From IMG/VR virus record IMGVR_UViG_3300032024_000005, positions 1 through 25,078 of that record: a DNA stretch of 25,078 nt; one strand, written 5' to 3'. This stretch comes from a virus (taxonomy: Duplodnaviria; Caudoviricetes). Below the pieces are notes generated by a model that made no database searches, was not told the origin of the DNA, and worked only from the letters and a program-made list of their open reading frames with translations. A program made the position numbers and the translations under genes. Within the stretch, counting starts at the first letter, position 1. Each line of letters starts with the position of its first letter. Positions 2,071 through 19,300 of the stretch are shown here, in pieces.

Positions 2071-2640
2071 ATGCTCGGCTTTCATGCAATATCAGTTGCC
2101 CCTATTTCTTCCCTTGTTATTGTTACGGGGGATATGGCGGCAACCACAAGCGTCGCATTTTCCACAAGTGCGACTCTTGTAGGCTCAGGTGCACTCCTTG
2201 GTATTACAAGTCCTACATTCTCTTTGTCAGGCACTGTTCAAGGCTCTGGGGCGCTCCTAGGCGCTACAACACTTACCTTCAGCCCCACAGCTACTGGCAT
2301 GCTGTTGGGGGTTCTAGCGGGCTCTATAAGCCCGGCATTCTCTTTATCAGGGACTGTGCGAGGCGCTGGAGCCCTCCTAGGCACCACGTCTGTCGCTTTC
2401 TCCCCAACCGCCGCTATGTTGGCAGTAGCATTTACTTCAGGTACGGCATCTTTTGTCTTCACTGTATCAGGAGGTATTACCCAACTTCCAGACTACACAT
2501 GGCAAAACCCAGATGGTTTAATCATTATCTACGGAACTGGGAGTGGAAGCTCCTTCCCCAGCATCATAAGGCCCAACCCCGGCGAGCCACCCGGTAAGCT
2601 TATCTACAACAGATCAAAGAGACATGGATATAGGAAATAG
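2071..2640 (+). CDS. Repeat-containing putative fibre protein (189 aa)
   Basis: N-terminal MLGFHAISVAPISSL, then six 20-aa G/A/S/T-rich repeats and a basic C-terminus. The TAG stop overlaps the GTG start of terL. Confidence 0.6.
   Translation: MLGFHAISVAPISSLVIVTGDMAATTSVAFSTSATLVGSGALLGITSPTFSLSGTVQGSGALLGATTLTFSPTATGMLLGVLAGSISPAFSLSGTVRGAGALLGTTSVAFSPTAAMLAVAFTSGTASFVFTVSGGITQLPDYTWQNPDGLIIIYGTGSGSSFPSIIRPNPGEPPGKLIYNRSKRHGYRK
2125..2484 (+). repeat. Six degenerate 60-nt (20-aa) coding repeats with a 120-nt super-period
   Basis: TGDMAATTSVAFSTSATLVG / SGALLGITSPTFSLSGTVQG / SGALLGATTLTFSPTATGML / LGVLAGSISPAFSLSGTVRG / AGALLGTTSVAFSPTAAMLA / VAFTSGTASFVFTVSGGITQ. DNA at 2218 (ttctctttgtcaggcactgt...ctcctaggc) matches DNA at 2338 (ttctctttatcagggactgt...ctcctaggc). 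Confidence 0.8.
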
Positions 2641-4199
2641 TGGCAATAGACGTAAAAGACCAAATACGTACAATAGCAGAAGGTGACCTTGAAGCATTCA
2701 TTAAACTCGTTCAGCCCCAAAGAGTCCTCGGAGATGTTCATAAGGAACTTATCCGCTGGTGGACACGTAGCGACGCCCGGTCTCACCAAATGGTCCTTCT
2801 GCCACGAGATCATGCCAAGAGCTACTTCGCCGCGTGCAGAGCAGCTTGGGAAATTACTAAAAACCCGGCAATTCGCATTCTCTACATTTCCTCTACCAGT
2901 AATCTCGCGGAAAAGCAACTAGGTCTTATAAAGCAGATCATTACGTCCCCAGTCTATCGTAAGTACTGGCCTGATATGACCCACCCGGATGAAGGCAAAC
3001 GAGAGAAGTGGACTAATAACGAAATCTCAGTAGACCACCCACTCCGCAAGATTGAGGCTATCCGTGATCCGACTGTCTTTACCGCAGGTCTTACTACTAA
3101 CGTTGTGGGTATGCACTGTGACATTGCCATTCTGGATGACGTCGTTACAAACGAAACAGCCTATACCGAAGAAGGCCGTGAAAAGGTCAGAACCCAGTAT
3201 TCACTCCTTGCTTCAATCGAGGGCGCAGATGCCCTTGAATGGGTGGTAGGCACTAGATACCATCCGAAGGACCTTTACAACGACTTACTCGCATCAAAGA
3301 TCGAACTATACGATGATACTGGAGAGCTTGTTTCGGACGAGCCCCTGTACGAAATCTTCCAGCGTGAAGTCGAAGACATGGGAGACGGTACTGGGACTTA
3401 CCTTTGGCCCAAGCAGCAACGAGCTGATGGTAAGTGGTTTGGTTTCGATCAGAATATTCTAGCTAAGAAGTATGCTCAGTACATTGACAAAACACAGTTC
3501 AGAGCCCAGTACTACAACAACCCGAATGACGCAGGCACGGCTTCGATCAAACCGGAATTCTTCCAATACTACGACCGCGCAAAACTTACCAGATCAGATG
3601 GCAAGTGGTACTACCAAGGTCAGAGACTCAATATCTTTGCCGCGATTGACTTCGCTTATTCTATCAGACTTAAAGCAGACTTCACATCGATTGTTGTGGT
3701 GGGTGTAGACGCTCTAGGAAATCACTACGTCCTTGACATCGAGCGGTTCAGAACCCAGATGATTAGTGATTACTTCGCGAAGATACTTCAGCTTCATGTC
3801 CGTTGGGACTTCAGGAAGCTACGTGCCGAAGTGACGTCCGCCCAAGAAATCATCGTTAAAGATTTGAAAGAAAACTACATCCGTCGTCATGGCCTATCTC
3901 TCTCAATTGACGAACACCGCCCCACTAGACAAGACGGCCAGAAGATCGAACGTATCGAAGCCATCCTCCAGCCGAAGTATAGTAATCGTCAAATGTGGCA
4001 CTACCACGGTGGTAACACACAAATACTTGAAGAAGAACTCATCCAGCAGAACCCTGCACACGATGACGTCAAGGACGCACTAGCTAACGCTGTCGCAATC
4101 TGCATTCCTCCGATGGCAAGCCGTTTAAGTTCACAAGCGCCGAGCTGGCAGAAGCCCGGTATCATAAATCCTCGTTTTGGTGGAATATCAGTTGGCTAA
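2640..4199 (+). CDS. terL: Terminase large subunit (519 aa)
   Basis: Walker A-like LLPRDHAKS, Walker B IAILDD, coupling motif VGTRY, RNase H-like nuclease motifs AAIDFA and HDDVKDA. Lies directly upstream of the portal. Confidence 0.93.
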   Translation: MAIDVKDQIRTIAEGDLEAFIKLVQPQRVLGDVHKELIRWWTRSDARSHQMVLLPRDHAKSYFAACRAAWEITKNPAIRILYISSTSNLAEKQLGLIKQIITSPVYRKYWPDMTHPDEGKREKWTNNEISVDHPLRKIEAIRDPTVFTAGLTTNVVGMHCDIAILDDVVTNETAYTEEGREKVRTQYSLLASIEGADALEWVVGTRYHPKDLYNDLLASKIELYDDTGELVSDEPLYEIFQREVEDMGDGTGTYLWPKQQRADGKWFGFDQNILAKKYAQYIDKTQFRAQYYNNPNDAGTASIKPEFFQYYDRAKLTRSDGKWYYQGQRLNIFAAIDFAYSIRLKADFTSIVVVGVDALGNHYVLDIERFRTQMISDYFAKILQLHVRWDFRKLRAEVTSAQEIIVKDLKENYIRRHGLSLSIDEHRPTRQDGQKIERIEAILQPKYSNRQMWHYHGGNTQILEEELIQQNPAHDDVKDALANAVAICIPPMASRLSSQAPSWQKPGIINPRFGGISVG

Positions 4200-5988
4200 C
4201 GGAAGTACATTAGATTTAGATAATATCCTAGTAAAGGATGATATAGCCTGTGAGTTATCGCGTCTATATATGGACTGGGAAATCCGCAGGGCTCCTTGGG
4301 TAAAGGAGAAGGCAGAAATACAGCGGTATGTCTTTGCTATAGATACTACAAATACAACCAACGCAGCCCTCCCCTGGAAGAATACGACTCACGTTCCTAA
4401 GCTCTGCCAGATCAGAGACAACCTCTTCGCTAACTACATGGCAGCTCTATTCCCAAAGTCCGATTGGCTGGAGTACATCGGAGCTGATCGATCTGAGCAG
4501 ACGAAGACTAAAGTCGACACAATTAAAGCCTATATGCAGCTTCTTATTGAACGGCCTGAGTTCAAGGCTGAAGTCTCCAAGATGCTTTATGACTTCATTG
4601 ACTATGGCAACGTCATCGCTGGTGTTGAGTGGATTGATGAAACCCAAACTATAAAGAACAAGAATACTCAGAAGATTGGCTTCGTAGGCCCAGTGCCTAA
4701 GCGGTACTCTCCTATCGACGTTCTATTTAATCCAATTGCACCATCCTTCAACAGGACTGGTAAGTTCATCAGAAGTCAAATGACTATGGGTGACTTTGCC
4801 ACGCAGTTGGCTCAAGAGACCCCTGCTGATAATCAAGAGGCTAGTCAAAAGCTATTAGCCTACATGCGCGACCTTCGTATTATGACTGGCAGGACAGCAG
4901 GTACGTATGACATCAAGAATGAAATCCTGAATATTTCGGGGTTTACTGACTATATCTCCTACCTTCGGAGTAATTACGTTGAAGTACTGACCTTCTATGG
5001 TGACTACTATGATATCGTTTCAGGAACACTCCATCAGAATAAAATCATTACTATCGTCGATAGACACAAACTGGTTTCGATTGTAGATAACCCAAGCCTG
5101 CTTGCTACAGACGGTCTCCATCACTGTGGCTGGCGCATCCGCCAAGACAGCCTGTACGCTATGGGTCCGCTAGATAACCTCGTTGGAATGCAATACCGCA
5201 TCGATCATCTTGAGAATTTGAAGGCCGACTGCTTCGATCTCATCGCATTCCCTCCTCTTATGATTAAGGGCCTAGTCGATGACTTTAAATGGGGCCCGAT
5301 GGAGCGTATAAACGTAGGCGAAGACGGGGATGTCAAACTTCTGTCTCCTGACGTAAACGCACTACAAGCCAACCTCGAAATCAACAATCTCATGAACTTG
5401 ATGGAGGAGATGGCTGGCAGCCCTAAGGAAGCCGCAGGCTTCAGGACTCCGGGTGAGAAGACCATGTACGAAGTCCAGCGTCTTGAGAACGCAGCTGCCC
5501 GTATCTTCGCTACCAAGATTCTACAGTTCTCGGTAATGCTCGAAGAGCTTCTAAACGACATGCTTGAGATGGCCCGTAGGAAGGCTACGTCACAGACTAT
5601 AAGGATGTTTGACTCTGAGTCATCTGCTGTTGTCTTCATGGATATAACTACAGACGATATCTCTGGCACTGGGCGCATTCGCCCAATGGCTGCACGGAAC
5701 TTCGCTGAGAAGGCAGAGCGCGTACAGAATATTAATAACTTCTTCCAATCTACACTTGGCCAAGATCAAGACATTAAGGCCCACTTCTCAAGCATTAAAC
5801 TCGCTGAGATGTTTGAAGACCTTCTTGACATTGACCAATACGATCTTGTCCAGCCTTATATTCGTTTGTCTGAAGAGGCTCAGGCTCAACGCCTGCAACA
5901 GGCAGGACAAGAACAGACCCAGATGGCAGCTTCTACACCATCGGGATTGACCCCCGAAGACCAGCCAGAGGATATCAGTCTACAATGA
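4192..5988 (+). CDS. Portal (head-tail connector) protein (~598 aa)
   Basis: Size and position after terL, with podoviral portal-like segments (LYDFIDYGNVIA, LYAMGPLDNLVGMQYRIDHLEN, GFRTPGEKTMYEVQRL) and a Q-rich C-terminus. The start is probably TTG 4192; GTG 4177 is the in-frame alternative. Confidence 0.88.
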   Translation: MANGSTLDLDNILVKDDIACELSRLYMDWEIRRAPWVKEKAEIQRYVFAIDTTNTTNAALPWKNTTHVPKLCQIRDNLFANYMAALFPKSDWLEYIGADRSEQTKTKVDTIKAYMQLLIERPEFKAEVSKMLYDFIDYGNVIAGVEWIDETQTIKNKNTQKIGFVGPVPKRYSPIDVLFNPIAPSFNRTGKFIRSQMTMGDFATQLAQETPADNQEASQKLLAYMRDLRIMTGRTAGTYDIKNEILNISGFTDYISYLRSNYVEVLTFYGDYYDIVSGTLHQNKIITIVDRHKLVSIVDNPSLLATDGLHHCGWRIRQDSLYAMGPLDNLVGMQYRIDHLENLKADCFDLIAFPPLMIKGLVDDFKWGPMERINVGEDGDVKLLSPDVNALQANLEINNLMNLMEEMAGSPKEAAGFRTPGEKTMYEVQRLENAAARIFATKILQFSVMLEELLNDMLEMARRKATSQTIRMFDSESSAVVFMDITTDDISGTGRIRPMAARNFAEKAERVQNINNFFQSTLGQDQDIKAHFSSIKLAEMFEDLLDIDQYDLVQPYIRLSEEAQAQRLQQAGQEQTQMAASTPSGLTPEDQPEDISLQ

Positions 5989-6245
5989 AAGCAGTATGGA
6001 CTCAAGACCTCCGAGACCAAAAGGCACGAGACGAAAGAGCTTCCGCGATAAAGAATTCAACGGTATTGATTAACAGACTGTTGACTATACTCTCAGACAA
6101 ATTCGAAATGATTGAGAGAAAAGGGTTCTCAGAAGAAGATTACATCTCCGCAGAGAACCTTCCTGAACTCCAAGCTTTCCGCAATGGCAAGCTTGCAACC
6201 TATAAAGAAATCGCAGACCTATTCGATTTCAAAACAGAAAGATAA
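5985..6245 (+). CDS. Hypothetical protein between portal and scaffold (86 aa)
   Basis: ATGA overlap with the portal stop; predicted helical; ends QAFRNGKLATYKEIADLF. Confidence 0.75.
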   Translation: MKAVWTQDLRDQKARDERASAIKNSTVLINRLLTILSDKFEMIERKGFSEEDYISAENLPELQAFRNGKLATYKEIADLFDFKTER

Positions 6246-6247
6246 GC

Positions 6248-6985
6248 ATGACCAAGCTTTTTACAGAAGACGATCTCGAAGACACAAATGAGATCGAAAT
6301 CCCCACAGACGCCCCCCTGAAACCCTTCCTTGAGAAATACAAGGATGAAAAGGGTGTAGCGAAAGCTATCGTCGAAAAGGATACCTTCATTGCCAGACTT
6401 CAGAGAGAGAACGCAGAGTTCCGTGCTAAGCAGGTAAATGAAGGAAATGTTGCAGAGATAGTTGACCGGCTGCTCGCATCCCGTACACCCACTCCCAATC
6501 CAGAGCTAGGCACCCCGCCCGGTTCCCAACAGAGTGAACAACCACAAACTCCATCAGGAATTTCTATCGCTGATGTAGAAAAACTGTTAGCCCAAAAGGA
6601 TCAACAGAACGCTGCTAAGACTAACGCCATCCAAGTCAGACAAGAGCTTGAAAAACTCTATGGTCAGAACTGGGTCTCGGAAGTCAAAAAGAAGGCAAAA
6701 GACCTTGGTGAAAGTCTCGAATTTATGGAGACACTAGCCCAGACTAAGCCCGCTGTTATGTTGAAATTGTTTACGACTGTTACAGAACCCCCACGGGCAC
6801 CTCTGTTTAACAATACCGTAAACACTACAGCAGCTACCCTAAACGCTGGGACTAACCAGCAGAGGACTATGAAGTATTATCAGGATATGAGGGCTAAAGA
6901 CCTCGTCCGGTATAACTCACCCGCTGTTCAGAACCAGATGCACAAGGACGCACTACAACTACGAGAGGCTTTCTTTGATGTCTAA
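6248..6985 (+). CDS. Capsid scaffolding protein (245 aa)
   Basis: Lies immediately before the capsid gene. Acidic N-terminus, coiled-coil segments (DTFIARLQRENAEFRAK) and a P/Q/S/T-rich linker. Confidence 0.75.
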   Translation: MTKLFTEDDLEDTNEIEIPTDAPLKPFLEKYKDEKGVAKAIVEKDTFIARLQRENAEFRAKQVNEGNVAEIVDRLLASRTPTPNPELGTPPGSQQSEQPQTPSGISIADVEKLLAQKDQQNAAKTNAIQVRQELEKLYGQNWVSEVKKKAKDLGESLEFMETLAQTKPAVMLKLFTTVTEPPRAPLFNNTVNTTAATLNAGTNQQRTMKYYQDMRAKDLVRYNSPAVQNQMHKDALQLREAFFDV

Positions 6986-7009
6986 TTTTAACATCACAGG
7001 AAATAACAC

Positions 7010-7234
7010 ATGAGTGGTTTTTCAGTCGCTGCGAACGATCATCTGATCCGTTCGAATTTGTGGTCGAGCCAGTTGAAGGAAGTGTTTGATGCCGAGCTGA
7101 TGGGAATGCAGTATGTAGACATTATTACTGACTTCCCTGATGGCACGACTCTCAATATTCCGTCTATCGGTCAGGCCGAAGTCCTCGATTACGTCGAAGG
7201 ACAAGCTGTAAGATACTCTTCAATGGATACCGGT
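7010..7234 (+). CDS. Major capsid protein, exon 1 (75 codons, MSGFS...SSMDTG)
   Basis: SD (AGGA) upstream of ATG 7010. Capsid-like N-terminus (LIRSNLWSSQL...DFPDGTTLNIPSIG). Ends at the U of the predicted U-G 5' splice pair (7234), exactly on a codon boundary. Confidence 0.88.
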
Positions 7235-7864
7235 TGCACAGTACACTGAAGTTGCCGGTTTAAAATTTCGCTATATGCTGGAACACCTTAAAACTTGAAG
7301 TACTAATTAGTGAAAATCTTCAAGGTAAAAACCCCACTGAGGGAAGGCAATCAGCAGGAAAGGACAATATGACTAATACCGAATTAGCATGGTTGGCAGG
7401 CATTTGGGAAGGGGAGGGAAGTATCCTTCTTTACTCTAGGCCAGTCGATAACAATAGAATACAAATAACACCATCTCTACAAATGTCTAATACCGACGTG
7501 CACATAATGAATAAAGCACGTAAGATATTAGAAGAACTTGGTTGTAGTTTTTCATGGCGGCAATACCGCCCTAAGAAAGGCACTAGAGATTGTTATAGAT
7601 TATCTTCGTCTAACGCAGAGTATATAAGCAAAACTCTTTCTGAAATTCTGCCTTATATGTACGGCGAGAAGAAGGCAATAGGTGAGACACTACTTGCATT
7701 CACTTCTAGGAGAGTGGAAAAAGCCAAGGATCAAAAAGGCGGTTTCAAGCACACTCCCTATGACGAGGAAGATTACGAATTCGTCCGTTCCTCAGAGACT
7801 ACACGCGAAAAGGCTTCGGCCTAAGATATAGTCCAACCCTCTCGGGAGACCTTGAGGTATTCTG
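7235..7864 (+). mobile_element. Group I self-splicing intron (630 nt, IB-like core) carrying a homing endonuclease gene
   Basis: Core elements: P ATATGCTGGAAC 7273-7284, Q AATCAGCAGG 7349-7358, R TCAGAGACTACA 7792-7803, S AAGATATAGTCC 7823-7834. Helices: P3 TTTCGC 7266-7271 with GCGAAA 7805-7810, P7 GACTA/TAGTC, P8 AGGC-TTCG-GCCT 7811-7822, P9 with a GAGA tetraloop 7838-7857, terminal G 7864. P1: exon ACCGGT 7229-7234 pairs with GCCGGT 7254-7259 (U-G wobble). P10: TGAAGTT 7247-7253 pairs with exon 2 AACTTCA 7865-7871. Confidence 0.95.
7369..7824 (+). CDS. Intron-encoded single-motif LAGLIDADG homing endonuclease (151 aa)
   Basis: N-terminal ELAWLAGIWEGEGSI is a LAGLIDADG helix, followed by beta-strand segments and the typical C-terminal LSEILPYMYGEKK. 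Inserted in the P6 loop of the intron. Confidence 0.9.
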   Translation: MTNTELAWLAGIWEGEGSILLYSRPVDNNRIQITPSLQMSNTDVHIMNKARKILEELGCSFSWRQYRPKKGTRDCYRLSSSNAEYISKTLSEILPYMYGEKKAIGETLLAFTSRRVEKAKDQKGGFKHTPYDEEDYEFVRSSETTREKASA

Positions 7865-8590
7865 AACTTCACGTTCACCATTGATCAGTACAAGTCTTCA
7901 GCTACGTTTATTACTAACCAGATGAAGCAGGACTCATTCTATATGGGTAAGCTTGTTTCGTCTTTCGTCCCTAAGCAGAACCGTGCTATTCAGGCGGCTA
8001 TGGAAGCCAAAATCCTGAACGTCGGCCCTCTTGCTCAGACTAACGCTGATACCAATGCCATCAACAGTGCATCGCATCGTTGGGTAGGTTCAGGTACGAA
8101 TGAAACAATGGCTCCACAGGACTTTGCGAAGGCGCTTTACGCCCTCCAGAAGGCCAACGTGCCAATGACTAATCTTGTTGCAATCGTAGACCCTAGCGTC
8201 GAGTACGCTTTGAATACGATGACCAACCTCGTCAATATGTCTAACAACCCTCGTTGGGAAGGCATTGTTGGTAGTGGTTTGTCGTCCGGTATGCGGTTCA
8301 TCAAGAACATCTACGGATTTGACGTCTATACTTCGCAGTTCCTTTATACCAATACGGCATCGGAAGCAATTTCCGGCGTAACTGCCGCTGCTGGTGTAAA
8401 CAACTGCTTCTTCTCGGCTGCTGGCGATGCTAAACCCATCGTTGGTGCGATCCGGCAGGCTCCTAATGTTGACTCTGAGTATAACAAGGACTTGCAGCGT
8501 GAAGAGTACGTGACGACTTCTCGGTATGCGTTCAAGTTGTATCGTCCCGAAAACTTTGTTGTCGTCGTAACCGACACCGATCAGGTTTAA
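7865..8590 (+). CDS. Major capsid protein, exon 2 (241 aa; spliced product 316 aa)
   Basis: The frame is open from 7865 (NFTFTIDQYKSSATFITNQMKQDSFY...), in phase with track ORF 7922-8590. HK97-fold-like segments: ALYALQKANVPMTNLVAIVDP, IYGFDVYTS, YAFKLYRPENFVVV. Confidence 0.9.
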   Translation, partial: NFTFTIDQYKSSATFITNQMKQDSFYMGKLVSSFVPKQNRAIQAAMEAKILNVGPLAQTNADTNAINSASHRWVGSGTNETMAPQDFAKALYALQKANVPMTNLVAIVDPSVEYALNTMTNLVNMSNNPRWEGIVGSGLSSGMRFIKNIYGFDVYTSQFLYTNTASEAISGVTAAAGVNNCFFSAAGDAKPIVGAIRQAPNVDSEYNKDLQREEYVTTSRYAFKLYRPENFVVVVTDTDQV

Positions 8591-8601
8591 TGGAGGAATA
8601 A

Positions 8602-9162
8602 ATGACTTGGATGAATAGTGACGGCTTGTACGTCAAATTTGCAAAAGAAGAAAGTGCTTCTGCCCGTGGTGGTGAATACGCACAGACCGATCAAGGTCGG
8701 CATGTGATCGAATTCAACATCGATTGGAAGGATGTACAGTCAACCTCTAACCTGGCACTTGGAAGTGTTGCTACAACCGCGAACCCTGAGACGGGCTCTC
8801 GTGTACGCATTCCAGAGGGCTTTATTCCAGAGTTCCTCGAAGCAACCGCTGCTGTAGCTTTTACAAGCTCTGGCACGATTGGAACGTCTACGATGGTCAT
8901 TGGCTATCTTAAGGCTTCTGATGAAACTGCACTGGATGTTGACATCCTTACCACGACTTCTTTTGTTGGCTCGGTATACGATGCCACCAACGAGAATACA
9001 TTGGTTAAGGTTGGGACGACTGGTGCTGGCGTAGCTTACGGCGTAGCCAATACGGAAAACGCTGTAATCTGTGTTGCTAACTCGCAACATGCTTCGCATC
9101 CGTACACCGCTGGTGTCCTGAAGTGCCGTCTTGTAGGGCGTTTCGGTCTAGCATCGATCTAA
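8602..9162 (+). CDS. Putative capsid decoration or minor head protein (186 aa)
   Basis: Strong SD (GGAGG), directly after the capsid gene. Beta-rich, with WMNSDGLYVKF, RIPEGF and YTAGVLKCRL segments. Confidence 0.6.
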   Translation: MTWMNSDGLYVKFAKEESASARGGEYAQTDQGRHVIEFNIDWKDVQSTSNLALGSVATTANPETGSRVRIPEGFIPEFLEATAAVAFTSSGTIGTSTMVIGYLKASDETALDVDILTTTSFVGSVYDATNENTLVKVGTTGAGVAYGVANTENAVICVANSQHASHPYTAGVLKCRLVGRFGLASI

Positions 9163-9175
9163 GGGAGTAGTATAA

Positions 9176-9823
9176 ATGACTACATCTTTAGATAAATCAC
9201 ACCAGATGGACTTTGCTGGTCTTGCGTTAAAAGCTAAAGACCTCGATCTGTCTGGTTCTCTAAGCCTTGCTGACGGAACAGCTATTACCGTAACAGGTGC
9301 AGAGCTTAATAAGCTCGATGACAGTCTTGAGACTAACATCTTAACCCCTTCTGCTGGTATTACAACCGATGCAGAAGACTATGCTTCAGGTATTATACGT
9401 AACGGTGATCTAATCATTACTCGTATTTACTTTGATCTTACCGGACTAGTTGGTTCAACAACTGACTTGGACATTATTGGTAAGTCAGCGGTTGCATCTA
9501 ATTTTGGCCAGATCACTACGGCCAAGAGTGGATTAATCCGTGGAGGTACTCTACAATGTTTGGAGGTTCCCGCAGGTGGGGCTGACGATGTTGATCTCTA
9601 CTCGGCTACTGTAGGTACGGGTGCAGAAAATGTTGACGTTAGTACGTTGACTGAAACTGCATTGGTAACTGCTGGTGGTGCGTGGACCGCTGGTTTGGTA
9701 AAGCCTTTGACTGGCTACCCAACAGCAAATGACTATCTGTATGTCTGTAATGGTGAGGCTGCTGTGCCCGGCACGTTTACTGCCGGTAAGTTCGTTCTCA
9801 CTCTTTATGGAATGACAGCTTAA
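9176..9823 (+). CDS. Putative virion structural protein (215 aa)
   Basis: SD GGGAG. G/A/T/D-rich and beta-rich; the C-terminal FTAGKFVLTLYG echoes the YTAGVLKCRLVG end of the preceding protein. Confidence 0.55.
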   Translation: MTTSLDKSHQMDFAGLALKAKDLDLSGSLSLADGTAITVTGAELNKLDDSLETNILTPSAGITTDAEDYASGIIRNGDLIITRIYFDLTGLVGSTTDLDIIGKSAVASNFGQITTAKSGLIRGGTLQCLEVPAGGADDVDLYSATVGTGAENVDVSTLTETALVTAGGAWTAGLVKPLTGYPTANDYLYVCNGEAAVPGTFTAGKFVLTLYGMTA

Positions 9824-10369: not shown

Positions 10370-10542
10370 TGCAAACTCTAAACGATGTCTTCAGCCATCC
10401 TTATATAACGACTCCTATAGCTACGGCAGCCGCTATCAATCCATGGATTACAGATGGCCTCCCAGTAGCGCTTCAGGTACTGGGTGTCATCTTTCTTGTA
10501 ATCCAGATATTCTACATCATCAAAAATAAAGGAAAGAAGTAG
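10369..10542 (+). CDS. Small membrane protein, putative holin or antiholin (57 aa)
   Basis: Not in the ORF track. MQTLNDVFSHPYITTPIATAAAINPWITDGLPVALQVLGVIFLVIQIFYIIKNKGKK*: one strong transmembrane segment and a basic tail. Overlaps both neighbours (TAATG, TAGTG). Confidence 0.65.
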   Translation: MQTLNDVFSHPYITTPIATAAAINPWITDGLPVALQVLGVIFLVIQIFYIIKNKGKK

Positions 10543-11255
10543 TGAAAAATTTAATTGCGGTTGTAGCTAGCATTTTCTTCCTTACTAATATCGTAGACGC
10601 TAAGACTCTCCCCGAAATTCACGAATTAGCAAATGATGTTGTTCTTTCCCTAGGAGACAGATCGGGGGACTTCTGCTCTGCTACCGTAATAGACAAAACC
10701 AAAAATTTAGCCTTAACAGCCAATCACTGCACTGAACGCGCCCGGAAGATTGTATACTTCGTAGATTGGACAGATAAGGTTTCAAAGAAGGTAAAATATG
10801 AATACTATCTTCCTCTGAATGTTACTAACCGGAAGATGAAAGAAAATGGTGAAATCTACTTTACCCAGAAATGTGAAGTCACTGTTCTTGGCACCGAGAC
10901 TGCAGCAGATGCCTCTATTTTAAAAATAGAAGATAGATGTCATTTTACTAATGAAGCAAAACTTAGTACAAAGAGCGTTAATTATGGGGACGTCGTCTAT
11001 ACTATGACCAACCCGTTCATGATTTACAACGCTGTCTCTGAGGGGAAGGTAACACAACCACAGGCATATCATGAAAAAATTCCAGCGTCCCCCGTCATTA
11101 TGTTCCAGGGGCAGCTTGCCCCCGGCAGCTCTGGTGGAGCGCTAGTAAATGAAGCTGGTGAACTTATTGGTATTACAAATTGGGGTGTTGGCTCTCTCGC
11201 TTTTGCCTCTCCTGTTTCTAACGTAATCAATTTACTGAATAAATTAAATGTCTAA
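10542..11255 (+). CDS. Trypsin-like (S1/PA clan) serine protease with N-terminal signal peptide (237 aa)
   Basis: Catalytic triad motifs ALTANHC (His), DASILKI (Asp) and APGSSGGALVN (Ser), then GELIGIT. MKNLIAVVASIFFLTNIVDA resembles a Sec signal peptide. No room for a PDZ domain. Confidence 0.88.
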   Translation: MKNLIAVVASIFFLTNIVDAKTLPEIHELANDVVLSLGDRSGDFCSATVIDKTKNLALTANHCTERARKIVYFVDWTDKVSKKVKYEYYLPLNVTNRKMKENGEIYFTQKCEVTVLGTETAADASILKIEDRCHFTNEAKLSTKSVNYGDVVYTMTNPFMIYNAVSEGKVTQPQAYHEKIPASPVIMFQGQLAPGSSGGALVNEAGELIGITNWGVGSLAFASPVSNVINLLNKLNV

Positions 11256-11631
11256 ATTCGGCACTAGGTCATTAAAGAATATGAAGGGGTTGCATCCAGA
11301 CCTTCTAAAGGTTTTGAATGAGGCTATAAAATCCCCTCCGTATGACTTTACTGTTATAGATGGTCTTAGGACAATGGCTGAGCAGAAGAAATTCGTAGCG
11401 CAGGGTAAAAGTAAGACGTTGAGGTCACGTCATCTATCAGGCAAGGCTGTGGACGTAATGTGTTTGATTGATGGCAAGGGGACTTGGGGAGTGGAGGTTT
11501 ATAAGACCTCCGCTAAGCATGTTCTCTCTTGTGCTAAGAAACTAGGTATCGCTTTGGTCTGGGGCGGTTCCTGGAAGAGTTTTCCAGACTATGTGCACTT
11601 TGAACTAGATAAGAAAAGGTATGGATATTAA
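11248..11631 (+). CDS. Endolysin, M15-family Zn peptidase (L-Ala-D-Glu peptidase type, T5 lysin-like; 127 aa)
   Basis: GLRTMAEQ, SRHLSGKAVD (SxHxxxxAxD), WGGSW and DYVHFEL motifs. Confidence 0.92.
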   Translation: MSKFGTRSLKNMKGLHPDLLKVLNEAIKSPPYDFTVIDGLRTMAEQKKFVAQGKSKTLRSRHLSGKAVDVMCLIDGKGTWGVEVYKTSAKHVLSCAKKLGIALVWGGSWKSFPDYVHFELDKKRYGY

Positions 11632-13338: not shown

Positions 13339-15471
13339 TTGGCGCGTTCTGCTGGGACAGTAGTAGAAAACAATTTCGTCAACGGACTTGTTACAGAAGC
13401 AACAGGACTGAACTTTCCTGAGAACGCGTGTACGTCCGCCAGCAACGTAGTCTTTAAAGAGACTGGTGAGGTTACCAGACGGCTGGGCTTTGATTATGAA
13501 ACAGCATATCAGCTGAATAGTATTACACGAAATTCATCTGCTATCGTAGAGTACGAATGGAAGGCAGCTGGCGGTATCGGAGACATTAACTTTGTTGTGC
13601 AGCAAATAGGCGATACTATATATTTCTATAGAGTATCCGCCGAAGACAGTCTTTCGCACGGACTCCATGCTACTACAATCTCATTGAGTACATATACAGT
13701 AGCCGGGGCACCTGCCGCCAGCACAGAGCCGTGCTCGTTTGCCACTGGCAAAGGGTATCTGTTTATAACAAATAAGTACTGTGAACCATTTTATGTATCC
13801 TATAACGCAGCTACTAATGCCTTTACTTCAACAGAGGTAGCAATACAGTGCCGTGACTTCGAGGGCGTAGATGATGCTCTTGACCCCGATGAACAACCAA
13901 CCACCCTAACTGAATTACACGAATACAACCTTCTAAACCAAGGCTGGGACATCTCGCCCGATGATGGCACAGCCTTACCTTTCGCTCAGGCTATAGACAA
14001 CTATTTCAGTGTTGTTGCCGCATACCCCAGCAACTCTCAGCAATGGTGGTTGTACAAGAGTACACAGGGACAGTTCATTCTGTCGAATAATGAACACGCC
14101 CAATTTGGTATAGGTAACAGTCTAGCACCGAAGGGGCACTACGTGCTGAATTGGTTTAATACTGATCGTAGTGGCGTTTCTTCACGGATTACTTCTGTAA
14201 CAGAACGGAGCGCTGGCTACAGAAGACCTTCAGTATGCGCTTTCTTTGCTGGTAGAGTTTGGTACGCTGGTGTAGAGTCCTCTGCCTATTTGGGTGAAAT
14301 TTACTATACTCAGATCATCGAGCGGGATGACCAGCTGGGTAAATGTTACCAGTCAAACGACCCCACGTCTGAAGAGCTATCAGACCTTCTGGATACCGAT
14401 GGTGGTATCGCCCGTGTCTTGGACATGGGCACTGTGTTCCGTATGTTCGCTACGCAAAAAGCGCTAATCATCTTCGCAAGCAATGGTATATGGAGTATTT
14501 CAGGAAGCGACGTAGCCTCTTTTAAAGCCACGGATTATACTATAAAAAAGATAAGTAACACCGCAGTGACCTCAGGACTTTCGTTTGTAGATGTTCTTGG
14601 TTCTCCGTTGTTCTGGACTGAGGATGGCATTTGGGCTGTCGCGTATGAAGGTGGTGATTTCACTCTTGTGTCTGTTTCTGACAAAAGAATTAAACAATAC
14701 TTTAAAGACATCCCAAGAGAGAGCAAAAAGTGGGCAAAAGGAGCTTATAATACTGTAGATAAAACAGTCCAATGGATTTATAGTTCATCCAAACCCAGTA
14801 CAGTTGACAGCCAGTATACTTATGACTCTGTGTTAGTTTTGAATACCACAACCGGGTCATTCTACCCTTGGACGATATACTCAGCTACTAAAACAGTAAA
14901 TGGAATTATATCTTCTCTAGGGCCTGCCTATGGCGCATTTGATACGGTAATAGATGCTTCAGGCAATACCGTAATAGATGCTTCAGGCAATACAGTCGTA
15001 GTAATTTCTGAGGCGGATACTAGCTCATTCAGATACTTCGTAACAAAGAATGTCTCAGGAACTACTTACAATAGTACATGGGCGGTTAGCGGGGATACGC
15101 GGTATTTGGACTGGGTTTCAGACGCAGAAAGTTATGACTATACCAGTCTTTTTATATCCGGGTACAGGGTTCATGCTGATGGCAATCGTTTGTACCAGGC
15201 TAATTATGTGACATTTTATTTGAAAGACGACACAGGGTCATCGGCCTTTGTACAGGGGCTTTGGGATTACTCTAATAATACTTTGAGTAAGAAATGGACC
15301 ACAGCCCAGCAGATTTATAACTCAACACCTACGTATAGGGACTACCGGGTACGAAAGATAAAGATACGAGGCTGGGGGCTGTCCTGCCAGTTCAAGATTT
15401 ACTCAGCGACCGGAGTTCCTTTTAGCGTAGTCGGATGGAGTGCATTTGAAACAGCCAACCCTCTCCCTTAG
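13339..15471 (+). CDS. Tail nozzle (tail tubular protein B, T7 gp12 / P22 gp10-like; 710 aa)
   Basis: TTG start. N-terminal NNFVNGLVTE, propeller-like repeats (CAFFAGRVWYAG, LIIFASNGIWSI) and C-terminal KIRGWGLSCQFKI...PFSVVGWS fit a podoviral nozzle. Confidence 0.82.
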   Translation: MARSAGTVVENNFVNGLVTEATGLNFPENACTSASNVVFKETGEVTRRLGFDYETAYQLNSITRNSSAIVEYEWKAAGGIGDINFVVQQIGDTIYFYRVSAEDSLSHGLHATTISLSTYTVAGAPAASTEPCSFATGKGYLFITNKYCEPFYVSYNAATNAFTSTEVAIQCRDFEGVDDALDPDEQPTTLTELHEYNLLNQGWDISPDDGTALPFAQAIDNYFSVVAAYPSNSQQWWLYKSTQGQFILSNNEHAQFGIGNSLAPKGHYVLNWFNTDRSGVSSRITSVTERSAGYRRPSVCAFFAGRVWYAGVESSAYLGEIYYTQIIERDDQLGKCYQSNDPTSEELSDLLDTDGGIARVLDMGTVFRMFATQKALIIFASNGIWSISGSDVASFKATDYTIKKISNTAVTSGLSFVDVLGSPLFWTEDGIWAVAYEGGDFTLVSVSDKRIKQYFKDIPRESKKWAKGAYNTVDKTVQWIYSSSKPSTVDSQYTYDSVLVLNTTTGSFYPWTIYSATKTVNGIISSLGPAYGAFDTVIDASGNTVIDASGNTVVVISEADTSSFRYFVTKNVSGTTYNSTWAVSGDTRYLDWVSDAESYDYTSLFISGYRVHADGNRLYQANYVTFYLKDDTGSSAFVQGLWDYSNNTLSKKWTTAQQIYNSTPTYRDYRVRKIKIRGWGLSCQFKIYSATGVPFSVVGWSAFETANPLP
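14942..14996 (+). repeat. In-frame 24-bp tandem repeat (2.3 copies; TVIDASGN x2)
   Basis: GTAATAGATGCTTCAGGCAATAC occurs identically at 14947-14969 and 14971-14993. Confidence 0.92.
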
Positions 15472-15874
15472 GCTAGGGACAGCTGAGGACGTCGAGACTG
15501 TGGTTAACTTTTCCAGAGCTCTCTTCGAAATATCCCCTTACAGTGTTGTCTCAACGTTTGACAGCAAGGTAGTCTGGGATAACTATCTAACCAGTCTTAG
15601 TATGCCTAAGTTCGAATTCATAACTATGGTACTCTGCGACGGGGATAAACCAGTAGGCTTCATGAGCTGTGGCAGCAACAAAGGCCAGTTCTCAGAAGAC
15701 AGATACGCAGTTGAAGTCGGCTTCTACATCCTACCTGAACACAAATCACTATCCTCAGTTAAACTACTTATATCAGCATTCCACTATTGGGCTAAGGAGT
15801 CAGACTGCAAGGCTGCATTCGTAGGTAAAATGAAAGATCGTAAAATCGAGACTTATAAGATGAAAGTGCTCTAA
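15446..15874 (+). CDS. GNAT-fold acetyltransferase-like protein (T7 gp13-like position; ~142 aa)
   Basis: LRLGTAEDVETV, VLCDGDKPVGFM, FYILPEHK and LLISAFHYWAKESDC follow the GNAT secondary-structure pattern. TTG 15446 follows SD GGAG; GTG 15440 is the alternative start. Confidence 0.7.
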   Translation: MKQPTLSLRLGTAEDVETVVNFSRALFEISPYSVVSTFDSKVVWDNYLTSLSMPKFEFITMVLCDGDKPVGFMSCGSNKGQFSEDRYAVEVGFYILPEHKSLSSVKLLISAFHYWAKESDCKAAFVGKMKDRKIETYKMKVL

Positions 15875-15919
15875 TGGCGCTATTTCACACTAACAAATTA
15901 AAGAAGGAAATAGCTTAAT

Positions 15920-16306
15920 ATGGCAATGGGACTGTCTATAGTTGGTGGTATTGTTTCTGCCATAGGTTCAGCAAAACAAGCTAAGGCTTCGGCCAAGGCA
16001 GAGAAGCTTCGTGAACGTATGTTGACTCTGGAGGCCATGCGTAAGCGCAGGGAGCTGATCCGGGAGTCTGTAGTAGCTAGGGCTACTGCTACATCAAATG
16101 CTACAGCTCAGGGTGCGGGTGAGGGCTCAGGATTAAAAGGCGGTATTGCCCAGGTTACCAGCCAGGCTAATCGGAATATTCTCGCTAGCAACCAGGATGA
16201 AGCTCTTGGGCACGGTGTCTTCAAGGCCAATCGTCAATACGCTAAAGCCGGTGGCATTATAGCCTTCGGCCAGGGTATCTCATCCTTGGGCTCCGCATTT
16301 GGTTAA
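15920..16306 (+). CDS. Small internal virion (ejection) protein, T7 gp14-like (128 aa)
   Basis: Hydrophobic G/A-rich termini (MAMGLSIVGGIVSAIGS; GGIIAFGQGISSLGSAFG) flank an A/R/K-rich helix. First of three genes after the nozzle and GNAT genes. Confidence 0.72.
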   Translation: MAMGLSIVGGIVSAIGSAKQAKASAKAEKLRERMLTLEAMRKRRELIRESVVARATATSNATAQGAGEGSGLKGGIAQVTSQANRNILASNQDEALGHGVFKANRQYAKAGGIIAFGQGISSLGSAFG

Positions 16307-19300
16307 TCAGCCTTACACTTCTATAGACCCGTCCGTCGCGCCTTCTGAAGACGTAGCGACGGGTCTTGACATTTCGCAAGTACCCCCTAATGTATCTCCA
16401 AAGCTGCCTGAGGAAGTGGCTAAGACACGCGCATCAAAGTATGATCTAGCTCTTGGTGATGCGTCACCAGGTATCCAGAGCGTTCAGGATGCTCTCTCAA
16501 GCGGTGGTGAAGACTCACTCCGTTTGACGTTAGCTAATGCGGAAGTCCGCAAGCGTTGGGAAGCCGCAGTTGAACTATTCAAAACAGGAGAGGCCACAGT
16601 CGACGGTGACACCATGAACGGTGTCCTTGACGCTGCAAAGAAACAAGTCTCTCCTTCTTCTGTCCTTGAAAAACAGTACGCTGAGAAGGCGTTGGGTTTG
16701 TCTCTAAGTTTAACTAACTCCCCAGAAGAAATTAATGATGCTAACACTCCACACAGCCAGGCTTTATATGATTTTTACAGCCGCCGTATTGCAGATGAAG
16801 AAATCTACCTAAAAGCCCAGGAAGATGCTGACGCCGCTATAGCGACACTCATCCCAGGCTATGGCGCACACGACGACCGCTTTTCGTCTGAGCAGAATAT
16901 ATCAAATTGGGCTGATTTCGGGACTAGCCTTATTCCATTTTATACCCAAAATGCGATGAGCACGAAGGAGCTAGGTGAACTCCTCTCTGCGTGGCTGCCT
17001 GGTAACAACAGAGCCGAGCAGTATGACTTCATCCACGGAATGAAGACAGAAGACAAGGCTGTTTTAATTCCACAAATCGTGGCCAGTATATCCGCAAGGT
17101 CTCCTACAGACGCCGCCATATGGGCACACGGGTTAACTGACTATTCAGCCATATCCGCTGAGCAGGATAACGCATTTGGTGTCCTGGATATCGCCAGCAT
17201 TGTCCCGGTAATAAAAGGCGGCAAGGTTATATCAGGAGCTGCCAGGAAGCTTGGTGGGCTCGTAGAAGGCGTAGGTGCTTCAAAAGAACGCCTAGTTATA
17301 GCCAAGAAGGGCGCAGAAGCCTTTAAGAAGGCTCAGGAGGCTGCTAACCGCGTTCCGGCATTTACTACAGCCAAGGAAGCAGAAACGTCGCTGACGGGGC
17401 TCCTAGATGGCCTACAATCGAAACGTCGTACCTTGATGGACCAGATGATCACTCAAGGAAGAGATGGCAATACGGCTAAAGCTGCTGTCCTCCGGTCTGT
17501 CCTTGAGAAGACTGCCCAAGATGTTTCTGATCTCGAAAAAGGTTTATCTGAGCTAAAAGGTGCTCCAAAGAGCAAGGCTGCTCCTTTGGTTGAGAGGCTC
17601 CGCAGGACAGCATTAGCAGTTCAAGACCCCAGCCTTGGGGTAGCTGAAAAGCTCTCTGCCTCAGGCCATCTGAACGAGGCTGCCAGACTCCAAGCCATGA
17701 AGCTTGTTGAAAAGACAGTTCCTCAGGCTGGTAAGACTATAAAGAGAGATTTCGCTGACCTTCTTAGTAATACTCCTACTTTATATTCTCCAGTAAAGAA
17801 GTTCTTGGACGCTGCTGACGCTTCGAAGATATTAGCTAATAGATTAACTGACTTCATGTCTGACCAGGAAATGCTTACTAAGGCATTAGGCAGCGTCGTC
17901 AACGTTTCCAGACTGGCCCCAGAGGCCCGTCAGATAGCTCTAGACGCAGCCGAAGCTGAGGTTAAGAAACAATTTGCACAAGCGAAAGACGGTGCTCTTG
18001 TAGTCATTGAAAAATTCAAGGATACAGACAACCCCTTTCTAAATACAAGTTACGTCGAAGCAGTCTTCGGCAAGCCAGATGGAACCTTCTTCGAGACAGC
18101 TCAGAAGGCACTGAACCACGGCAAGAACAGGTATGGAATGAATATCTCAGAAAGGGATATCTTCCAGGAAGGTGACGGCTATGCCATCAGAATTCGTAAA
18201 GACATTGACGAAACTTCTCCGAGTGTCCGTGATGCCCTCATCAGTCTTGATAACACAAGCAACACAGCACGTAACAAACTCTTTGGTTTAGTCCCGCTTC
18301 CGAAGAGTATGTCTTCAACAAAAGACACAGTGTCAAAGTTCCAGGCAGAGCAGCGTGCTGCTGTTACCCATGCTACCGTAGCTCGTCAGATGTTTATGAC
18401 ACGAATGATGGAGCCTGCTGGAAAGCTTTCTAAAGTAGAGCGCAAGTCCCTTGATACTATTATGGCCATGAACCGGGATGCTGGAGCAGGGAGTAATCGT
18501 GGCAAGTTCTTCCAGAACGGTTTTGAACTAGATCAAGCTTACATAGCTAAGTTCGACAGATTAGCTACACCAGCTGAGAAGGGAGCTTATGAAGCATTCG
18601 TAAAGGCTAGTGACGCTGACTACATCTTCAGGGCTGCTGAGGGTATTAAGGTTAAGTCCCGGCAAGGCATAGAGCGGATGTCCATGACTGCTCCCGGCAA
18701 GGATGGTACAGCATTCTCATTTGAAGGCAAGATTGTAAACGATCTGCCTTACGACAGCAAGCATGTCGGTAGTGTCTTCTACGCCCCTGATCTGACTACA
18801 AAGGGCAAGTACTATCGCTTGAGTGAGATCAAAGACGACCTAAAGAAGCAGATCAGGAGTGGTATTGATAACAAACAGCTTACTATTGTCCACGTCTATA
18901 ATCCTGAAGACGAGGCGATTCGTGCTGGTCTGAAAGTATCAGGTCCAGTTAATTTCGTTGTTACAAAGACACTGAAGCGCGAGCCTATTCGTTTCGACGA
19001 GCAGCTCCCCTACCGTGCTGGATTCCACGTCAAGTACAAAGACGAATTCTTTATCAAGCAGCCTAAAATATATTATGACTCATCTCGTAGACGTGTCTAC
19101 GCGGGTGATGTAGTTGCCCTTGGAGTGAGCAATTCTGCTAAGGCGCAGAAAGAGGTTAAGCTCCTTGAACGAGCCCGGCAAGCGGTCAAAGCGAAGGATG
19201 ATGTGGCTATCGGCGCAGTCATCAATGATGGTCTCCCACTCACGGCTAGTGAGATTAAGAAAATGTTCAAGACCACCTTCGATGTAGATACACCCTTCGC

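Follow-up and report, generated by a model that had tools for sequence, protein, structure and literature searches.

The window analysed here is a linear virus record of 25,078 nt, 54% complete and with 0 tRNA genes. It carries a podophage morphogenesis module (terminase, portal-like, scaffold-like, capsid, tail and internal virion proteins) within which the major capsid protein gene is split by a group I intron. The genes and features of this region are listed below, the first four as context, their order being that of the Zobellviridae ICBM1/ICBM2.

2640-4199, + strand: terminase large subunit gene
4177-5988, + strand: portal-like gene
5985-6245, + strand: small ORF
6248-6985, + strand: scaffold-like gene
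7010-7234, + strand: major capsid protein exon 1; 75 codons, 3' end ...GATACCGGT (...MDTG); PHROG 267 match at residues 7-74; 84% identity to the intronless homologue in contig L005
7229-7259, + strand: P1 and P10 guide region; exon 7229-7234 pairs with guide 7254-7259, and guide 7247-7253 with exon 2 7865-7871; in-frame UGA at 7247-7249
7235-7864, + strand: group I intron; 630 nt, U7234 before the 5' site, terminal G7864; top-ranked join and core covariation
7369-7824, + strand: predicted single-motif LAGLIDADG homing endonuclease ORF; 151 aa, in the P6a loop; PF14528 E 3e-5, above the cut-off; AlphaFold pLDDT 89
7865-8590, + strand: major capsid protein exon 2; 241 codons and stop; PHROG 267 E 2e-25; 53.6% to the Lentibacter phage ICBM1 major capsid protein

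The best cultured matches are the Zobellviridae ICBM1, P12053L and SIO1 (capsid exon 2 at 53-54%, terminase at about 60%), which have the same gene order, and the best cultured capsid and terminase matches of this 54% complete contig belong to the Cobavirinae. Judged by best hits and gene order, the phage is likely a Zobellviridae-like podophage. Elsewhere in the window, four small virion-type ORFs lie upstream of the terminase gene and apart from the tail genes (473-2640), with a PF23140 Gp80 / PHROG 240 match among them at 733-1230; midway through the structural module (10542-11631), a gene for a trypsin-like serine protease (PF13365, E 2e-14) and one for an M15 peptidase endolysin overlap; and the stretch after the tail appendage gene (15440-24025) comprises genes for a GNAT acetyltransferase, an ORF of 128 aa, an internal virion protein of 1721 aa and a protein of 853 aa whose C-terminal part has an endolysin-like match.

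Splice boundaries and reading frame

A preliminary description of this locus had proposed that removal of 7235-7864 joins the two capsid fragments in frame, and this is borne out: exon 1 and exon 2 joined without these nucleotides encode 316 aa, the sole stop being the terminal one. In a scan of 105 x 75 = 7,875 donor/acceptor pairs, scored by protein similarity to three intronless homologues and by no splice rule, the DTG|NF junction (7234/7865) ranked 1. The PHROG 267 (major head protein) profile stays in register over both exons, exon 1 residues 7-74 corresponding to profile positions 34-101 and exon 2 residues 2-237 to positions 104-326. The same description had suggested a comparison of the spliced protein with intronless homologues; among 84 homologous capsid loci (4 GenBank phages and 80 viral contigs), 82 run across DTG|NF without a break.

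The unspliced capsid ORF extends over 7010-7249 and ends at UGA 7247-7249, so that unspliced RNA would yield the 79-aa fragment predicted earlier, and gene callers break the gene into ORFs of 79 and 222 aa. A full-length capsid ORF that could be read without splicing was found nowhere else in the window. Translation of exon 2 from its first ATG (7922) was considered as a source of capsid protein and rejected, there being no obvious Shine-Dalgarno sequence. The gene structure thus supports the view that the capsid protein would need splicing of the intron. Two sequencing runs, probably of DNA and with pieces of relatives only, showed no joint across the intron and weigh neither for nor against splicing. 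A search of 5900-9300 for sigma-70-type promoters returned 0 candidates against 4.1 expected.

The exons are brought together by a single guide, TGAAGTTGCCGGT (7247-7259), the only stretch of the window's + strand that pairs with the joined junction at 13/13 positions, G-U pairs being allowed; two other places reach 12/13. P1 consists of 6 bp closed by U7234-G7254 at the 5' splice site and P10 of 7 bp, in agreement with the earlier proposal of one 13-nt guide pairing with both exons and placing a U-G pair at the 5' splice site. An in-frame stop at most seven codons after the 5' junction is present in nine of ten complete capsid introns (the window's included), and most group I introns are said to have such a stop just 3' of the 5' junction (PMC3073962); the in-frame stop within P1 is an ordinary trait. 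The tenth intron, L102:430-1173 (protein P0054), has its capsid exon 1 frame open through the 5' intron half into the endonuclease, giving a 242-aa fusion with no early stop, an arrangement that resembles organellar introns and is unique among the ten.

Structure and class of the ribozyme core

The P, Q, R and S elements, at 7275, 7349, 7793 and 7824, occur together once in the window, and these elements and the terminal G (G7864) are intact as had been noted before. The core map below was drawn from an alignment of 11 capsid-gene introns.

7266-7365, + strand: 5' half of the core, from pair tables of the 11 introns; P3 7266-7271; P4 7276-7281/7351-7356; P5 7286-7289/7344-7347; P6/P6a 5' strand 7357-7365
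7294-7324, 7301-7312 and 7332-7343, + strand: P5 side helices, from pair tables across the 11 introns
7783-7864, + strand: 3' half of the core, first part; P6a'/P6' 7783-7791; J6/7 UCA; P7 7795-7801 with bulged A7796; P3' 7805-7810; RF00028 aligns with R and S
7783-7864, + strand: 3' half of the core, second part; P8 7811-7822 (UUCG loop); J8/7; P7' 7829-7834; P9 7838-7857 (GAGA loop, 2-nt internal mismatch); terminal G

In the 11 introns, 231 of 231 cells of P3, P4, P6 and P7 are paired, as are 434 of 456 cells over all 42 retained pairs; two candidate pairs that are mostly unpaired in the sister introns (7289-7344 and 7360-7788) had been dropped before these counts were made. Seventeen two-sided compensatory changes fall in 7 of the 21 pairs of P3/P4/P6/P7, namely in P3, P4 and P7. 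None of 1000 column shuffles matched the observed pairing of these helices, and slid controls gave 70-102. Relatedness is not taken into account by the shuffle, and it was the window's own sequence on which the helices were placed, so that the covariation is strong yet not independent evidence for a group I core. The P8 and P9 hairpins fold in all 11 sequences, and a bulged A7796 next to an invariant G7797-C7833 pair in P7 is likewise present in 11/11 introns; by the Tetrahymena model we take this to be the guanosine-binding site. The P6/P6a duplex amounts to 9.2 kcal/mol. Unconstrained MFE folding did not recover the core, and the core with the ORF deleted was modestly more stable than shuffled sequences (z -1.9). 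We also note that a UC/UU mismatch interrupts P9 of the window (7838-7857), whereas in most sisters this stem is an unbroken 7 bp, and that the P9 stems of L086, L087 and L088 are imperfect as well.

The Infernal search with Rfam RF00028, put forward in the preliminary description as a check, fails when taken alone: it gives 21.2 bits (E 0.16) over 7690-7856 of the window, below the gathering threshold of 50. Among 18 related loci, however, 14 pass the gathering score, the ORF-less ones at 59-84 bits, and the 4 below it (33-48 bits) are sisters with an ORF in P6a. The alignment of the ORF-less relatives runs through these elements too, the place of the ORF being taken by a short hairpin. The low score of the window is likely due to the ORF splitting the core between Q and R; it lowers formal Rfam membership and leaves the structural assignment to group I standing. 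With P1/P10 guide, P/Q/R/S, terminal G and covarying core all present, the earlier view of a complete group I intron in the capsid gene holds.

Members of subgroup IA, of the T4 td, SPO1 and Twort type, carry P7.1/P7.2 between P7 and P3'. No P7.1/P7.2 insert lies between P7 and P3' of the window intron, where there are just 3 nt (7802-7804), and by this criterion the intron would not be of the IA or IA2 type of T4 or SPO1; with IB-like motifs, it may be a candidate for subgroup IB. P7.1/P7.2 are also named as class features in a published account (PMC3984707). Clustered matches occur in other contigs: L168:793-3143 of one phage contig has four RF00028 matches within 2.4 kb, three of them above the gathering score, and P+Q matches lie close together in L186 (three) and L152 (two).

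A predicted endonuclease gene inside the ribozyme

The 151-aa LAGLIDADG ORF at 7369-7824, which the preliminary description had overlooked, takes up 456 of the 630 nt of the intron. Foldseek matches its AlphaFold model to I-CvuI, I-CreI and I-MsoI (E 4.5e-7 to 1e-6, TM about 0.6), and the family profile matches LAGLIDADG structures in the PDB. The modelled protein has one LAGLIDADG helix with its acidic residue and an I-CreI-like alpha-beta-beta-alpha-beta-beta-alpha fold. It shares size, fold and the LAGxxxGEG motif with these three enzymes, although identity to them is only 16-23%; among 43 homologues, the acidic motif residue (E16) hardly varies. The endonuclease ORF has a GC3 of 0.39, the exons one of 0.54.

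The ORF is interlaced with the ribozyme at both ends. It starts just after the 5' P6a strand, its Shine-Dalgarno sequence AAGGA sitting in the P6/P6a helix that pairs with 7783-7791, and its last 13 codons are the P6a', P6', P7, P3' and P8 strands, the UAA stop lying in P8/J8-7. The conserved endonuclease tail RSS(E/T)TTRE is the ribozyme R strand read as protein. The stop position differs among the sisters, with a tail of 8-23 codons counted from the conserved Arg and including the stop, and this variation fits the prediction of 'core creep' (PMC3073962).

The endonuclease (tblastn) and the intron (blastn) had no match in 50,697 GenBank phage records, and a single-sequence endonuclease search of viral contigs found nothing; an endonuclease alignment retrieved 15 viral, 13 metagenome and 2 genome contig loci, a word-index search 49 other close endonuclease clusters, and a profile search 1,542 representatives at E 1e-10 or better.

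The likely target region has a partial symmetry centred 3 nt 5' of the insertion site, with 5/6 pairs over 12 bp, which 3 of 929 centres reach and which is the best of 400 centres in 76 alleles. Over 22 bp the same centre gives 5/11 and is outside the top 10. The 12-bp symmetry is suggestive and the 22-bp symmetry ordinary. The DTG|NF site lies in the most conserved 20-nt stretch between -205 and +100 (0.89 identity, 76 alleles).

Sister introns and their insertion sites

Apart from the continuous loci, the 84 homologues include one that is truncated and one (L029) with an intron 6 nt upstream of the window's site; one of the 82 continuous loci, L020, has an intron at codon 45, which leaves 81/84 without an intron in that part of the capsid gene. 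The three nearest capsid relatives (L005, L006 and L007) are intronless, and in a FastTree phylogeny of 78 exon-2 sequences the intron-bearing genes do not group together but are dispersed between intronless ones. A further intron at precisely the window's site was found in none of the 84 loci, and homing to DTG|NF is thus a prediction.

Sister introns were gathered with the endonuclease alignment and the core motifs, duplicates of one contig being counted once. Ten complete introns, the window's included, occupy seven positions of the same capsid gene: after G45, after codon 46 (three introns), inside codon 48 (two), after D73, after G75 (the window), after N76 and inside codon 77. Two further sites were placed by eye from 5' ends only, after D41 (L193) and after T74 (L100), and the insertions thus fall in two short hotspots, codons 41-48 and 73-77. 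Each complete sister has the U/G register and a P1 of 4-8 bp, the register having been picked among top-scoring joins and hence being rule-guided. The guide fits its own exon best in 7/10 cases, ties in 2 and fits another exon better in 1, with a P10 of 1-7 bp.

The endonucleases closest to the window's are those of the N76 and T74 introns, at 63%. In the endonuclease tree, the window groups with these two at a support of only 89/90, and no branch was starred; the notion that the site follows the endonuclease clade is not established.

Two contigs have more complex arrangements. In L100:1-936 the 5' end and guide of the intron fit a site after T74, but downstream of its 3' end codons 48-75 come again in a divergent version, a duplication of some 27 codons; the stretch is either an assembly chimera or a recombinant between phages whose introns occupy different sites. 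L236:1801-2750, from the same contig as L127, contains an ORF-less intron of this class and, within about 500 nt after it, another stretch that looks like an intron and whose opposite strand carries a LAGLIDADG-like ORF.

A wider class with a possible preference for capsid genes

The exact P+Q pattern of the window intron matched 120 viral stretches, from which about 180 are estimated in the collection. Eighty loci with flanks were examined, 19 of which had no usable S element or downstream frame, leaving 61 to be scored. Matched against PHROG, the downstream frame had as its best hit major head in 36 of these, ribonucleotide reductase in 2, another family in 9 and none in 14; with eight loci added, major head accounts for 42/69, in seven PHROG families. 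These counts are to be read with the bias of the pattern toward relatives of the window intron in mind, and they include a few near-duplicates. The preliminary description had called capsid-gene introns less commonly described, which is overstated in view of the 36/61 loci here and of the published cases in LittleE, Tuc2009 and crAss-like Delta/Zeta phages discussed below. Introns with the same core motifs also precede capsid genes of PHROG 1357, 267, 9953 and 1328 in L235, L238, L244, L089, L095 and L097; L244 is ORF-less, and the endonuclease homologues in most of the others are distant (about 23-33%).

Discussion

We propose, with good confidence, that a mobile group I intron interrupts the capsid gene of this Zobellviridae-like podophage, and that it probably splices itself from the late mRNA and probably homes by means of its own LAGLIDADG endonuclease. 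This proposal draws directly on the splice boundaries, the restored frame, the paired core with its compensatory changes, the guide, the endonuclease fold and the scattered presence among intronless relatives.

Let us consider how such an element might work. Ribosomes would translate exon 1 and terminate at UGA 7247-7249, and would thus stay out of the core. Upon their release P1 might form, and guanosine bound in P7 would attack after U7234; P10 would align exon 2, and ligation after G7864 would produce the capsid mRNA for the 316-aa protein. Folding of P6a is expected to hide the endonuclease ribosome-binding site, and translation of the endonuclease would in turn unzip P6', P7, P3' and P8, so that a given RNA can probably either be spliced or serve for endonuclease synthesis, but not both. 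As a homodimer, the enzyme would cut a co-infecting relative at its intronless GAT-ACC-GGT-AAC region, and repair would copy the intron in. An intron endonuclease of PhiPA3 is reported to act in competition between co-infecting phages (PMC11620839). Homing would, we think, best explain the presence of the intron in the capsid gene.

The same data need to be considered with the assumption that the intron is real and that good splicing requires help, the LAGLIDADG protein being mainly a maturase, or host chaperones assisting, with DNA cutting weak or lost. LAGLIDADG maturases are known, including that of the Thermotoga 23S intron (PMC3984707), and some Bastillevirinae introns are spliced in vivo and not in vitro (PMC11878797); the weak MFE z-score of the core and the P9 mismatch are also consistent with assisted splicing. 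However, phage loci often contain introns that have this core and no ORF, the acidic motif residue of the endonuclease is conserved, and the intron is sporadic among close relatives, as expected for a mobile element. We therefore regard a chiefly assisting role as unlikely. The idea raised in the preliminary description, that the rate of splicing could limit head assembly as a regulatory step, is less probable still, and we rejected it. The capsid protein could not be made without splicing, and the stop codon overlaps the P10 guide, so that a terminating ribosome would be expected to cover P1. But 81 of the 84 homologous loci are intronless there, so these phages need no such control, the sister introns sit at seven different positions, and early in-frame stops are generic to group I introns; furthermore, LittleE virions assemble with spliced capsid protein, and the authors of that study presume very efficient splicing (PMC3706429). 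We found nothing that supports a throttle.

There is, lastly, the account in which the capsid gene is broken, the insert being either dead or non-splicing or else an artefact of assembly. The record is a single metagenomic contig, 54% complete, and its Rfam score is sub-threshold. This account would have to accommodate a perfectly restored frame, a 13/13 guide, an intact ORF, a fully paired core and ten further introns of the family in independent contigs; we rejected it on these observations and consider it hardly credible.

The family pattern, with its many nearby sites, retuned guides and capsid preference, rests on small numbers. We nevertheless find it the more interesting part, the single intron being an ordinary member of a documented kind. 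The predominance of loci before major head genes (36/61) over those before ribonucleotide reductase (2) suggests that the target is a conserved sequence in an essential gene, and it has been called 'mysterious' that group I introns of phages should prefer genes of nucleotide and DNA metabolism (PMC12350094, 2025). We offer tentatively, with rather less than even confidence, the possibility that a large, uncatalogued class of group I introns resides mainly in phage capsid genes and not in those of DNA metabolism, and that in these podophages one lineage of intron and LAGLIDADG endonuclease has 'walked' base by base within two hotspots, the guide being rewritten at each step while the endonuclease still cuts the same conserved capsid site of competing phages. 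If so, the family would provide a natural series in which to test whether group I introns arrive at new sites by reverse splicing or by relaxed endonuclease homing. Sister introns 1-6 nt apart with related endonucleases would provide such a test of intron movement; PMC3984707 speaks of no direct experimental evidence for the RNA route, and endonuclease genes are known to move between introns at neighbouring rDNA sites (PMC1299323). A practical consequence is that phages with such introns are mis-annotated, the capsid gene being split by gene callers and the intron missed by Rfam, likely because the ORF sits in P6a.

Comparison with known systems

Capsid-gene introns have precedents, although our literature searches returned no paper on them in Zobellviridae; a possible polymerase intron is what PMC10580990 offers for Zobellviridae and introns. 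The supplementary tables of PMC7886860, PMC12880540 and PMC11835236 could list more capsid introns. PMC11878797 places Bastillevirinae introns in polymerase, terminase and nucleotide genes and does not contain the word 'capsid', and PMC3984707 gives GIY-YIG, HNH, PD-(D/E)xK and EDxHD as the usual phage intron enzymes. In crAss-like phages of the Delta and Zeta groups, group I introns have been reported in the MCP gene (Yutin et al., 2021; PMC7886860). These are like the window intron in splitting the capsid gene of metagenomic phages; they were identified by their endonuclease domains and belong to phages of gut Bacteroidetes.

The closest precedent is the capsid-gene intron of mycobacteriophage LittleE (Pope et al., 2013; PMC3706429), for which splicing was demonstrated by RT-PCR and N-terminal sequencing, and whose authors also cite a capsid intron in Tuc2009. 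Both introns lie in the major capsid gene, follow a U at the 5' site, end in G and have intronless relatives, and both are associated with a single LAGLIDADG ORF related to I-CreI (gp14 in LittleE). The LittleE intron, however, is 819 nt long, resides in a siphovirus and has its ORF on the opposite strand, whereas that of the window is 630 nt long, belongs to a podophage and has its ORF on the sense strand, in P6a, overlapping the core. In this last respect the window intron resembles the 'core creep' introns of Edgell et al. (2011; PMC3073962), such as the Bacillus thuringiensis nrdF intron, whose GIY-YIG ORF in P6a overlaps P6a/P7/P7.1: in both cases the P6a ORF runs into the core, its tail varies among relatives and the ribosome-binding site is predicted to be sequestered. 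The window intron differs from the nrdF intron in encoding a LAGLIDADG rather than a GIY-YIG enzyme, in having no P7.1 between P7 and P3', and in having a capsid gene as its host.
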